Made by a program: the position numbers and the translations under genes
Part shown: positions 54,950 to 56,896 of the stretch, in pieces
Layout: each line of letters starts with the position of its first letter
Position numbering within the stretch: the first letter of the stretch is position 1
Assembly: GCA_035531615.1 (NCBI GenBank)
Contig: DATKSQ010000093.1
Span: forward strand, 45,700 to 109,699
Reading direction: 5' to 3'
DNA: 64,000 nt
From: Candidatus Binataceae bacterium
Lineage (GTDB): Bacteria; Desulfobacterota; Binatia; Binatales; Binataceae
The notes under the pieces: model-generated
What the model saw: the letters and a program-made list of their open reading frames with translations, nothing else
Databases searched by the model: none
Told to the model about the DNA's origin: nothing

Positions 54950-56896
54950 ATGAAACCGCTGGCCAAATTCGACCTCGTCTCGATCGAGGATCTCGCGCTG
55001 CCCGAGATCGAGCGCATCTTCACGCTTGCCGACGGCTTCGCGTCCGCGCTCGAACGCGGCGAGCCGCTGTCGCTCGCGAGCGGGCTCATCATGGCGACGC
55101 TTTTCTACGAGCCTTCGACCCGCACGCGGCTCAGCTTCGAATCCGCGATGCATCGCCTCGGCGGCGCGGTCATCAGCTCCGCCGACATGAACGCAAGCTC
55201 GGTCGCCAAGGGCGAGAGCCTTGCCGACACTGCGCGGATCGTCAGCGGATACGCGGACCTGCTCGTGCTGCGCCATCCGCACGACGGCGCGGCTCGCGTC
55301 GCCGCCGAATACGCGCCGTGCCCCGTCATCAACGCGGGCGACGGCAGCCGCGAGCATCCGACGCAGACCCTGTGCGACCTGTTCATCCTGCGGCGCAAGA
55401 AGGGCCGGCTCAAGGGACTCACCGTCGCGTTGTGCGGCGATTTGAAATTCGGCCGCACCGTTCATTCGCTCATCTATGCGCTGGCCCGCTTCGGCGCGAA
55501 TATCGTGGCGGTGCCCACCGCGGGAATGGAAGTTCCCGAGTACGTCCTCGAGCGGCTTGCGGCCGAGCGCAATTACAGCTTCTCGACCGTCACGATGGAC
55601 GAGCTGAAGTCCGTCGCCGGCGGGCTGGACGCGCTGTACCTGACCCCCAGCGCGCCGCATCAGATGGCGCTGTTCACCGGCGAGGCTCCGCACGGCAAGA
55701 TTCCCGCCGCCGCGCCGCCGCTCCTGCTTGACGCCTTCTACATCACGCGGCTGCAAAAGGAGCGGATGACGGGCAAGGACGCCAAGCCCGGCGATTACGT
55801 GCGCTTCGACGCGCGTGCTCTCAAAGGGCATCGCGCGCAAGAGGCGGTGGTGATGCATCCGCTGCCGCGCGCCGGCGAGCTCGCCTACGAACTCGACGCC
55901 GATCCGCGCGCGGTTTATTTCGAGCAGGCCGCCGCCGGAGTTCCCGTCCGAATGGCGCTGATCGCGTGGCTTATCGAGCAGTCGGGCGCGCAGCGCGGCG
56001 CGCAAACCGCGACCGCCGAGCCGATTCGCATCAAGGCCGAACCGTCGCCGCGATGCGCCAATCCGAATTGCATCACGCGGTTCGAGTCGGCGTACCTGCA
56101 TCCGCGCTTCAAGCTCGCGCGCCCGGCCGATCGCAACGTGCTGCCACTGCGCTGCGATTTCTGCGAGCGCGAACTGCACGTCGAGTTCGTGGGCCATGCC
56201 CGCTCGCATCGCTACTATCGCTACGATGAAAACCTTTACGGTTACGTCCGCAATTGGATCGCCGAAGGCTCGCTCGCCGTCTTCGACAGCGTCAAACAGG
56301 CCGAAGAGAACGGCTATGAGCCGTACAAACGCGGCCCCCAGCGCGAGGTTATGAACGCCCCGGAAATCTCGAGCGCGGTCGATTCTCTCGCCGCGCAGGT
56401 GATCGCGGATACCCCCGACCTTACCAATGTCTCGATCGTCGGGGTCGTGAGCCACGGCGCGATGCTGGCGGTTCGCCTGCGCGACCTGATCGCCGAGCGC
56501 TCGGGAGTGCGCCCGCCGACCGCGGCGCTCGACGTTTACAATCCCGCCGGCGCGATCGTCGCGCTCGATAGCGGAGAGCCGTTCGCGGTCGAAGCCCGCA
56601 CCATCGTGATCGTCGATGACGTCATCAATAGCGGATGGACCGTGCAACGCGCCATGACGACGCTGTGGCAGCACGGCCGCCCGGCCTCGGTCAGGCTCGC
56701 GGTGCTGATCGATCGAGGCCATCGCGCGGTTCCGATTCGTCCCAACTACGTCGGCAAGAATATCCCGACCTCGCGCACCGATCGCGTCCAGGTCAGGCTC
56801 GCGGCGCCGGGCTCCGCCGAAAAGCATCCGCCGCACGACCGGGTCATGATTTACTCGATGGTCGAAGAAATGGGCGCCTCGGAGCGCGCCGAATGA
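54950..56896 (+). CDS. pyrB: aspartate carbamoyltransferase catalytic chain fused to a PyrI-type zinc domain and a PyrR-like PRTase domain
   Basis: 648 aa. ATCase motifs are [28 protein letters not shown] and HPLPR. The zinc domain is C369-x4-C374-x27-C402-x2-C405. The PyrR-like domain runs from about aa 468 to 640 ([40 protein letters not shown]). Confidence 0.85.
   Translation: [648 protein letters not shown]

Follow-up and report, generated by a model that had tools for sequence, protein, structure and literature searches.

Aspartate transcarbamylase (ATCase), the first committed enzyme of pyrimidine synthesis, is the textbook example of an allosteric enzyme. Here we describe a form in which a catalytic chain of the PyrI-partnered lineage continues within a single open reading frame (ORF) into a PyrI-type zinc domain, a module resembling the zinc domain of Ada and a PyrR-like phosphoribosyltransferase (PRT) domain. 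The gene lies in a pyrimidine operon of a soil-dwelling Candidatus Binataceae bacterium, on contig DATKSQ010000093.1; the window referred to throughout is the whole stretch of 64,000 nucleotides (nt) that was analysed, and positions are counted from its first letter.

The class B ATCase holoenzyme of E. coli and the archaea (PyrB6-PyrI6) shares with the Binatia fusion the catalytic lineage and the four-cysteine PyrI_C domain, with two invariant residues that we take to be the equivalents of PyrI Asn111 and Glu119. The two presumably follow a common logic, in which the zinc domain serves as an adaptor between the catalytic chain and a dimerising nucleotide-binding domain. The fusion differs in being one polypeptide rather than two, in having a PRT fold in place of the PyrI allosteric domain (PF01948), in the reversed order of these parts, and in two additions, the Ada-like module and a 34-residue insertion before the 240s loop. 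The Thermotoga maritima enzyme, a fused PyrB-PyrI ATCase, likewise carries its catalytic and regulatory parts in one chain. It keeps a complete PyrI, the allosteric domain followed by the zinc domain, whereas in the Binatia fusion the allosteric domain is exchanged, the zinc domain comes first and the putative sensor last. A simple swap within a Thermotoga-type fusion was rejected on account of this reversed order and of the NCBIfam model for that type (NF009916), which gives 84 bits against a cut-off of 800 and covers only residues 50-205, in the catalytic part.

Bacterial ATCases have been divided into three quaternary types, namely complexes with dihydroorotase (DHOase), complexes with PyrI, either separate or fused, and bare trimers (PMC4581275, a 2015 review); that review counts the Thermotoga fusion (Chen et al. 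1998) as a variant of the second type. This review of transcarbamylases makes no mention of PyrR or of a phosphoribosyltransferase domain (PMC4581275), and no paper on an ATCase-PyrR fusion was found in the literature searched for this architecture. Judged by its domains, model scores and residues, the Binatia protein falls outside the PyrI family, the Thermotoga-type fusion and PyrR proper, and is a class B-lineage ATCase with a new regulatory build. PRT-type domains are known as small-molecule sensors in B. subtilis PurR and haloarchaeal GfcR (the latter is among the weak NCBIfam matches of the free-standing PyrR of the operon); in those regulators the sensor is coupled to a DNA-binding domain and acts on transcription, whereas the partner of the fused PRT domain is an enzyme.

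The reading we prefer, to which we give a little better than an even chance, is that the zinc module docks on the catalytic trimer, that the PyrR-derived domain replaces the PyrI allosteric domain as sensor of nucleotides or phosphoribosyl pyrophosphate (PRPP) and as probable dimeriser, and that control at the RNA level is left to the free PyrR. As part of that joint reading, and with the same modest confidence, the gene would encode an active ATCase chain together with its regulatory apparatus in the same polypeptide.

Domain architecture of the fused protein

The fused ORF runs from 54950 to 56896 on the forward strand (648 codons plus stop), as read from the ORF list and the translation of the window. 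NCBI nr already contains a protein 100% identical to it (P0256), which comes from a metagenome-assembled genome (MAG) and bears the name 'phosphoribosyltransferase family protein [Candidatus Binataceae bacterium]'. An initial annotation of this DNA had reported a pyrB ORF of this length, and the features it listed for the fusion can all be read in the translation.

Residues 8-345 (54971..55984, forward strand) form the ATCase catalytic chain, with its carbamoyl-phosphate and aspartate domains. In Pfam, OTCace_N matches residues 8-148 (150.4 bits, cut-off 29.9) and OTCace matches two stretches ending at residue 341 (66.9 bits, cut-off 29.4); the NCBIfam ATCase models TIGR00670 (residues 8-345; 286.2 bits, cut-off 236.95) and NF002032 (268.7 bits, cut-off 263) are also exceeded. 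With these scores, and with the motifs STRTR, HPTQ, GRTVHS, TRLQKER and HPLPR all readable, the earlier description of a complete E. coli-type catalytic chain stands. In E. coli numbering we take the chain to hold the equivalents of Lys84, of Arg167 (in GRTVHS) and of Arg229 and Gln231 (in TRLQKER). Among 84 sequences H303-R307 show no variation, and conservation of R267 and Q269 reaches at least 90%. The best matches of the catalytic part in the PDB are the enzymes of M. jannaschii (271 bits), P. abyssi (255 bits) and E. coli (about 220 bits), as against 115 bits for B. subtilis and 83 bits for A. aeolicus; because of this difference the chain is assigned, on sequence similarity, to the PyrI-partnered class B lineage rather than to the unregulated or DHOase-partnered type. 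The predicted fold agrees with ATCase chains at target-normalised template modelling (TM) scores of 0.80-0.89, and catalytic chains were the sole matches of the full-length AlphaFold model, computed for the single chain, in Foldseek. The individual domains are folded with confidence in that model.

The Pfam OTCace and PDB matches both break at a 34-residue insertion, residues 233-266 (55646..55747, forward strand), which carries the motif TPxxPxQxxLF. The insertion lies directly N-terminal of the aspartate-binding TRLQKER segment, i.e. on the flank of the '240s loop'. Its motif is at least 90% conserved in the 84 sequences, distant relatives from SAR202 among them, and every ATCase with the zinc and Ada-like tail, in SAR202 as elsewhere, has the insertion. 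The ratio of non-synonymous to synonymous substitution rates (dN/dS) is 0.21-0.38 for this segment, the AlphaFold predicted local distance difference test (pLDDT) falls below 50 at residues 223-257, and the insertion alone has no Pfam match. It may be a contact site for the zinc and Ada-like tail.

Only a tether of 21 residues, 346-366 (55985..56047, forward strand), with variable sequence and low pLDDT at residues 352-354, separates the zinc domain from the catalytic chain. Its dN/dS of 0.56-1.16 corresponds to nearly free evolution, and this is the true flexible tether of the protein. The PyrI_C-type zinc domain follows at residues 367-413 (56048..56188, forward strand); Pfam PF02748 matches residues 368-410 with 30.7 bits against a cut-off of 23.4 (E = 2.8e-7). 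Its cysteines, Cys369, Cys374, Cys402 and Cys405, are arranged as C-ANPN-C, 27 residues, C-DF-C, and a PDB search with the family profile retrieves PyrI chains (E = 1.3e-4 to 1.9e-4), all four cysteines being aligned, so that the resemblance to the PyrI zinc domain first noted for this CANPNC-x27-CDFC segment is borne out. In 30 sequences the four cysteines, Asn371 and Glu379 are invariant; the latter two are presumably the counterparts of Asn111 and Glu119 of E. coli PyrI. The domain has a dN/dS of 0.25-0.30. The nucleotide-binding half of PyrI is missing, as originally proposed: PF01948 has no match in the fusion protein at E <= 1 in Pfam.

The segment after the zinc domain, residues 414-464 (56189..56341, forward strand; W436 included), had been described as a linker resembling the tail of Ada-type metal-binding domains without the cysteines. 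The resemblance holds at the level of the motif, but the segment is not a flexible linker: its dN/dS of 0.04-0.16 is as low as that of the catalytic core and places it among the most constrained parts of the protein, it hardly changes between two Binatia clades of just 40% identity, and AlphaFold predicts a strand-strand-helix-strand-helix module with pLDDT of about 78-87. A profile of the zinc domain and this module, run against 1.84 billion representatives, found 104 proteins; at profile positions 48-98 it matches a protein (P0164) with a Pfam Ada_Zn_binding score of 115.7 bits, at E = 1.2e-7. That protein, of 414 residues and from a Logan assembly, is little more than a tandem series of seven or eight Ada_Zn_binding-type repeats with the pattern IGSxxSxxYHLPGC...F.SI.EAE.AGY.PC..C. 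With the Ada N-terminal zinc domain (PF02805) the module shares F-x-S-x-x-x-A-E-x-x-G-Y-x-P-[CY]-K-R and the preceding 'S-x-x-Y-[HY]' strand. The Ada domain has four metal ligands, whereas the module has none: there is no cysteine in residues 414-464, and in the motif alignment with the P0164 repeats all four ligand positions are replaced, by Tyr, Asp, Tyr and Gly. SAR202 homologues reach sub-threshold Ada_Zn_binding scores of 17.8 and 15.8 bits (cut-off 23); residues 405-472 of the window protein have no Pfam match at E <= 10, and the PDB search with the family profile returned no Ada match.

The PyrR-like PRT domain comprises residues 465-620 (56342..56809, forward strand), with Pfam Pribosyltran matching residues 466-602, and is followed by a C-terminal tail, residues 621-648 (56810..56893, forward strand), which by alignment and AlphaFold model consists of a last β-strand (DRVMIYSMV) and a variable end. 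That this region is a paralogue of the PyrR encoded upstream, as the initial annotation had it, agrees with the searches, in which PyrR is nearest by both sequence and fold. PyrR entries in the PDB (1ufr, 1non and others) match at E = 1.7e-26 to 5e-23 with 31-36% identity, hypoxanthine-guanine phosphoribosyltransferase coming next at 1e-5, and Foldseek gives target-normalised TM-scores of 0.76-0.87 against PyrR. The domain nevertheless stays below the cut-off of every NCBIfam PyrR model matched on residues 461-619 (NF003549, 125.9 bits against 138; the others 121 against 230, 109 against 218, 88 against 140 and 78 against 268), whereas the neighbouring free PyrR scores 208.4 bits on NF003549. 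Its dN/dS is 0.14-0.27.

The residues that set the fused domain apart were read from an alignment of 13 of 15 fused domains (L014 and L015 left out), 14 free PyrR of Binatia (none from L009) and two crystallised PyrR. Helix 1 is changed, from LTRIAHE to VDSLAAQ; in B. subtilis PyrR this helix reportedly holds the RNA-contact residues Thr18, Arg19, His22 and Arg27, according to Savacool and Switzer in 2002. At the helix-1 contact positions the fused domains have D/E/Q, S/A/E and A/D/E/R, where the free Binatia PyrR read R-I/M-A-H-E. The YRDD loop, kept in the free PyrR, is gone as well, replaced by VYNPAGA in the window and by IYGSGD in a second clade. What is kept, with at least 90% conservation, is the PRPP or 5'-phosphate loop VDDVxxSGxT (D556, D557, G562 and T564 in 84 sequences) and the block DRGHR...GKNIPTS, for which the free Binatia PyrR read DRGE/D/S-R and GKNIQAP. 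By this residue pattern the divergence of the fused domain and the free PyrR is complementary. Within the PRPP loop itself the Binataceae have SGWT, with Trp for Arg, while the second clade has TGRT, with the Arg.

Fused and free domains also differ in descent. A neighbour-joining (NJ) tree of the PRT domains, computed without bootstrap, places the fused domains in one clade, to which neither the free PyrR of Binatia nor any of 55 free PyrR from many phyla belong; the clade takes in two distant relatives (P0123 and P0140), with a third (P0147) as its deepest branch. The fused domain is 38% identical to the neighbouring PyrR over 130 residues (E = 4e-24), no closer than it is to Thermus PyrR. 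Because of this low identity and the separate clade, the fused domain is read as an old paralogue, passed on together with the operon, and a recent tandem duplication of the adjacent pyrR was rejected. An internal translation start at the ATG at 56351, earlier described as having a GAGG 4 nt upstream and lying at the start of the PyrR-like domain, was likewise rejected as unlikely: the GAGG ends 2 nt before the ATG, the synonymous sites are not conserved, the codon is Leu (CTG) in one locus (L005), and a Met at the same position also occurs inside ordinary PyrR.

Conservation of the fusion and its relatives

The architecture was searched for across genomes, as the initial annotation had suggested, and at least 120 clusters as well as 14 independent loci were found to have it; in the C-terminal half of the window protein Pfam detects both PyrI_C and Pribosyltran. 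Among the best 120 clusters of a full-length search, with 73-100% identity, all but one have proteins of 645-662 residues, the remaining one being a 550-residue partial sequence, and all four Pfam domains are present in all but two. A scan with one genome per species gave 13 loci (L003-L015) in which the C-terminal half is complete; their labels are Binatia, Binataceae, 'delta proteobacterium' and, in one case, Acidiferrales. Binning errors may account for labels that fall outside Binatia (Acidoferrales, Limnocylindrales). In these and one further locus (L001), i.e. all 14, a single frame contains STRTR, HPTQ, HPLPR, both cysteine pairs, DRGHR and the VDDV loop. Three of the loci have variants of the AEExGY motif, which is otherwise found throughout. 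A separate pyrR lies directly upstream in every locus except L009, where the contig is cut. All domains are under purifying selection by dN/dS, with residues 346-366 as the sole nearly free part, though dS is near saturation in some of the comparisons. On these sequences the fusion is conserved across Binatia, and profile models, PDB matches, predicted folds and this wide conservation concur in the domain parsing first proposed.

The possibility that an assembly or frameshift artefact joins pyrB to separate genes has to be considered since some database entries are C-terminal 'proteins' of only 310-316 residues and since one error-rich long-read assembly (L002) splits the gene. The short entries are gene calls at an internal Met, and the corresponding locus L001 has the full 648-residue ORF; L002 fragments lepA and carB too. 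The continuous frame in the 14 independent loci and at least 120 clusters, together with a GC content that is even across the domain junctions, led us to reject the artefact, which is almost certainly not the explanation. A stand-alone zinc-PRT protein was rejected in the same way, the entries of 310-316 residues on long contigs being either internal-Met calls (L001) or products of the error-rich assembly (L002), as were small 'stand-alone' zinc and Ada-like proteins, which are truncated calls beginning within the ATCase C-terminus (MHPLPR..., MRMAL...). In L001 (GCA_050736695.1, 3999-5945) the GenBank gene begins at Met335, so that no more than the last 314 residues are called, as 'phosphoribosyltransferase family protein', and the ATCase part has no annotation. 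Because only the C-terminal part is annotated in such cases, pyrB can look absent from genomes with these short gene calls.

More distant four-domain relatives exist (P0123, P0140/P0225 and P0147). One of them, a 653-residue protein in locus L083 (GCA_964372605.1, 4421-8089), has FRDD and YSGRT and is thus more PyrR-like; there the gene order is pyrR, fusion (P0140/P0225), carA, with no pyrC between, and an NtrY/NtrX-like two-component pair lies upstream.

The ATCases of SAR202/Dehalococcoidia, 460-490 residues long, are of the same lineage. They carry the same insertion (motif TP..P.Q..L), PyrI_C and the cysteine-free Ada-like motif, and differ from the fusion in having no PRT domain and no pyrR upstream; identity is about 40%. 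Examples include L085/L086 (5001-6467, from Tara and other marine metagenomes), P0162, P0171, P0188, P0156 and MQF99675.1 (488 residues; GenBank label 'hypothetical protein'), and the gene order is pyrB-pyrC-carA-carB. No description of this zinc and Ada-like ATCase was found in the literature searched. Since these relatives carry the tail without a PRT domain, the zinc and Ada-like tail is, on the sequences compared, probably the older and wider feature and the PRT domain an addition.

Possible roles of the fused tail

From the architecture, conservation, selection and residue pattern given above we infer docking, ligand binding, oligomeric state and allosteric effect as follows. The zinc domain would dock on the catalytic trimer as in PyrI; the isolated 70-residue PyrI zinc domain is said to bind catalytic trimers and to alter their kinetics (Markby, Zhou and Schachman, in 1991). 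The PRT domain would stand in for the PyrI allosteric domain and bind uridine, possibly guanine nucleotides and/or PRPP at the kept 5'-phosphate/PRPP loop. It would probably pair with a second copy in the manner of PyrR, so that two trimers are bridged into a hexamer of fused chains, and the rigid Ada-like module together with the insertion beside the 240s loop would pass the signal to the active site. PyrR is dimeric, and uridine nucleotides (UMP or UTP), guanosine nucleotides (GMP or GTP) and PRPP bind at its PRT site; UMP- and GMP-bound PyrR are among the PDB entries of the matched fold (titles 2igb, 4p86). Since the PRPP loop and the DRGHR block vary hardly at all, selection on the domain is purifying and UMP and GMP are known ligands of the PyrR fold, the evidence is taken to favour a PyrR-like domain acting as nucleotide sensor, as the initial annotation had suggested.

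A more far-reaching version is put forward tentatively, at somewhat less than even confidence. It takes the fusion as a third solution to ATCase allostery, in which a ligand-less relay of Ada type and a PyrI zinc domain link a PyrR-derived PRT domain to the catalytic trimer. The PRT domain would read the same uridine-versus-guanine nucleotide or PRPP signal as the free PyrR and bridge trimers into a hexamer by its dimers; the SAR202 enzymes would then represent an ancestral 'adaptor-only' stage.

Several observations weigh against the sensor reading. In the SAR202 enzymes no sensor domain accompanies the zinc and Ada-like tail, and the tail must therefore have a role that needs no nucleotide binding. 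The order of zinc domain and sensor is the reverse of that in PyrI, and the geometry need not mimic c6r6. With Arg changed to Trp in the PRPP loop and YRDD lost, nucleotide affinity or specificity may differ from that of PyrR, or be weak. The first and the last of these points also fit a purely structural tail, which would stabilise or oligomerise the trimer as DHOase or PyrC' does in class A, with the PRT domain a degenerate dimerisation module that senses no ligand; in addition, the most constrained part of the tail is the Ada-like module and not the PRT domain. We consider this unlikely, as conservation of at least 90% in the active-site DRGHR...GKNIPTS block and in the PRPP loop, with its acidic pair and S/T-G-x-T, across lineages that share only 40% identity is hard to explain for a mere dimerisation module. 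The kept PRPP-loop acidic residues, and the fact that PyrR proteins have uracil phosphoribosyltransferase (UPRTase) activity (PMC10970046), would also suit a bifunctional enzyme combining salvage and de novo synthesis in one protein. The shortened loop that has lost YRDD, the Trp of the Binataceae and a Pfam UPRTase score of 13.9 bits against a cut-off of 27 make a working UPRTase very unlikely.

The remaining alternatives tie the fused domain to the RNA-level regulation of the operon. It might still bind the pyr leader RNA as a second RNA-binding regulator, through which the enzyme feeds into attenuation or translation control, and indeed the fused domain retains the C-terminal half of the RNA surface of PyrR, and does so better than the free Binatia PyrR with DRGE/D/S-R (the positions presumably correspond to His140, Arg141, Arg146 and Lys152 of B. 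subtilis PyrR). The retained block, however, also belongs to the PRT active site, and the change of helix 1 and the scores below all PyrR equivalog cut-offs speak against RNA binding, as does the operon, in which one PyrR-type hairpin is seen and the 19-nt spacer and gene overlaps leave no room for further attenuators; this reading is quite unlikely, if not to the degree of the bifunctional enzyme. The suggestion of the initial annotation that the fused domain couples RNA-level and enzyme-level control is disfavoured on the same grounds (helix-1 residues and YRDD lost, every NCBIfam PyrR cut-off missed), and further because the free PyrR keeps helix 1 and YRDD and follows a conserved PyrR-type attenuator. 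Finally, the fused domain could be a docking site that heterodimerises with the stand-alone PyrR, the enzyme either sequestering the attenuator protein or being regulated by it. PyrR dimers (PDB titles 1a3c, 1a4x), the constant company of the two paralogues in Binatia and L083 and their loss of complementary sets of canonical residues would agree with this. The co-occurrence is uninformative, though, because pyrR upstream of pyrB is common in bacteria without the fusion (L054, L077, L022), and the paralogues are only 38% identical; of the four roles weighed here against the sensor we regard this one as the least probable.

Should the sensor reading be correct, with the zinc adaptor kept and the nucleotide module exchanged, adaptor and sensor would be separable parts of an allosteric machine, and the protein would offer a natural test of how a signal passes through the zinc domain. 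The RNA-level and enzyme-level users of one fold in the same operon would represent a clean sub-functionalisation after an old duplication, and the fusion and the SAR202 form together a natural series for the swap of an allosteric module onto a textbook enzyme. The variant may matter for pyrimidine regulation in soil, groundwater and marine communities, since the Binatia sequences were recovered from MAGs of soil and groundwater, and those of SAR202 are in part from marine samples of Tara Oceans. The proteins are already public under uninformative names, and the novelty lies in the interpretation and not in the sequence; current annotation is misleading, as the proteins appear as 'phosphoribosyltransferase family protein', as 'hypothetical protein' or with their last 314 residues only.

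The operon, its leader RNA and the free PyrR

The free-standing pyrR (54388..54930, forward strand; 180 residues) lies 19 nt upstream of the fusion, exceeds the NF003549 cut-off of 138 bits and keeps RIAHE and YRDD. In front of it a leader hairpin of the form CCUUUAA-stem-CUGAGA-stem-GRAAGG (54266..54296, forward strand) is conserved upstream of pyrR in the 14 Binatia loci; RNAalifold predicts 11 pairs over these loci, 7 of them with compensatory changes. The 3' arm, GRAAGG, is also the Shine-Dalgarno sequence of a leader ORF of 29 codons (54302..54391, forward strand; ATG at 54302). This ORF runs through an intrinsic terminator found by a terminator scan (54326..54356, forward strand), which has a 9-base-pair stem (54326-54347) and T8, and its TGA overlaps the ATG of pyrR as ATGA. 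Leader ORFs of 19-29 residues, starting 4-8 nt past the hairpin and ending at most 10 nt from the pyrR ATG, are present in 11 of the 14 loci, and a GC-rich hairpin with a T-run occupies the terminator position in all 14. The arrangement resembles the Thermus type of PyrR attenuator. The Rfam PyrR RNA model was not found in the window even at E <= 5, and no Rfam family reached its gathering score there, the lone match, ALIL at 14 bits, being ascribed to chance.

On this comparative evidence the hairpin at 54266-54296 is the probable binding site of the free PyrR. Because the genes after pyrR are packed without spacers, the leader is the only visible RNA control point of the operon, and it suits the free PyrR. 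We think it somewhat probable, jointly with the sensor reading of the fusion, that the free PyrR remains in charge of the operon at the RNA level, where it would act on hairpin, leader ORF and terminator.

Downstream of the fusion follow pyrC, a dihydroorotase of 456 residues (56893..58263, forward strand; Pfam Amidohydro_1 and DHOase), carA (58260..59459, forward strand) and carB (59513..62719, forward strand), the last two assigned from the ORF list with the gene order in L001 and, for carA, the lengths there. The stop codon of the fusion overlaps the ATG of pyrC as ATGA at 56893-56896, an identical 4-nt overlap being present in L001, and the pyrC stop overlaps the carA start in the same way at 58260-58263. 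These overlaps from fusion to pyrC to carA suggest translational coupling of the first three steps of the pathway.

Upstream of the operon, about 1 kb of the window at 53300-54000 has a lowered GC content of 51-58%, compared with about 65%. Inside it, between a 191-residue gene and the pyr leader, is a 92-residue ORF (53587-53865) without a Pfam match. Because the corresponding interval in L001 is only about 170 nt, the stretch looks like an insertion. A 785-residue antisense ORF (54551-56908, reverse strand) spans the entire fusion and further long overlapping ORFs lie close by; these are taken to be by-products of the high GC content and not genes.

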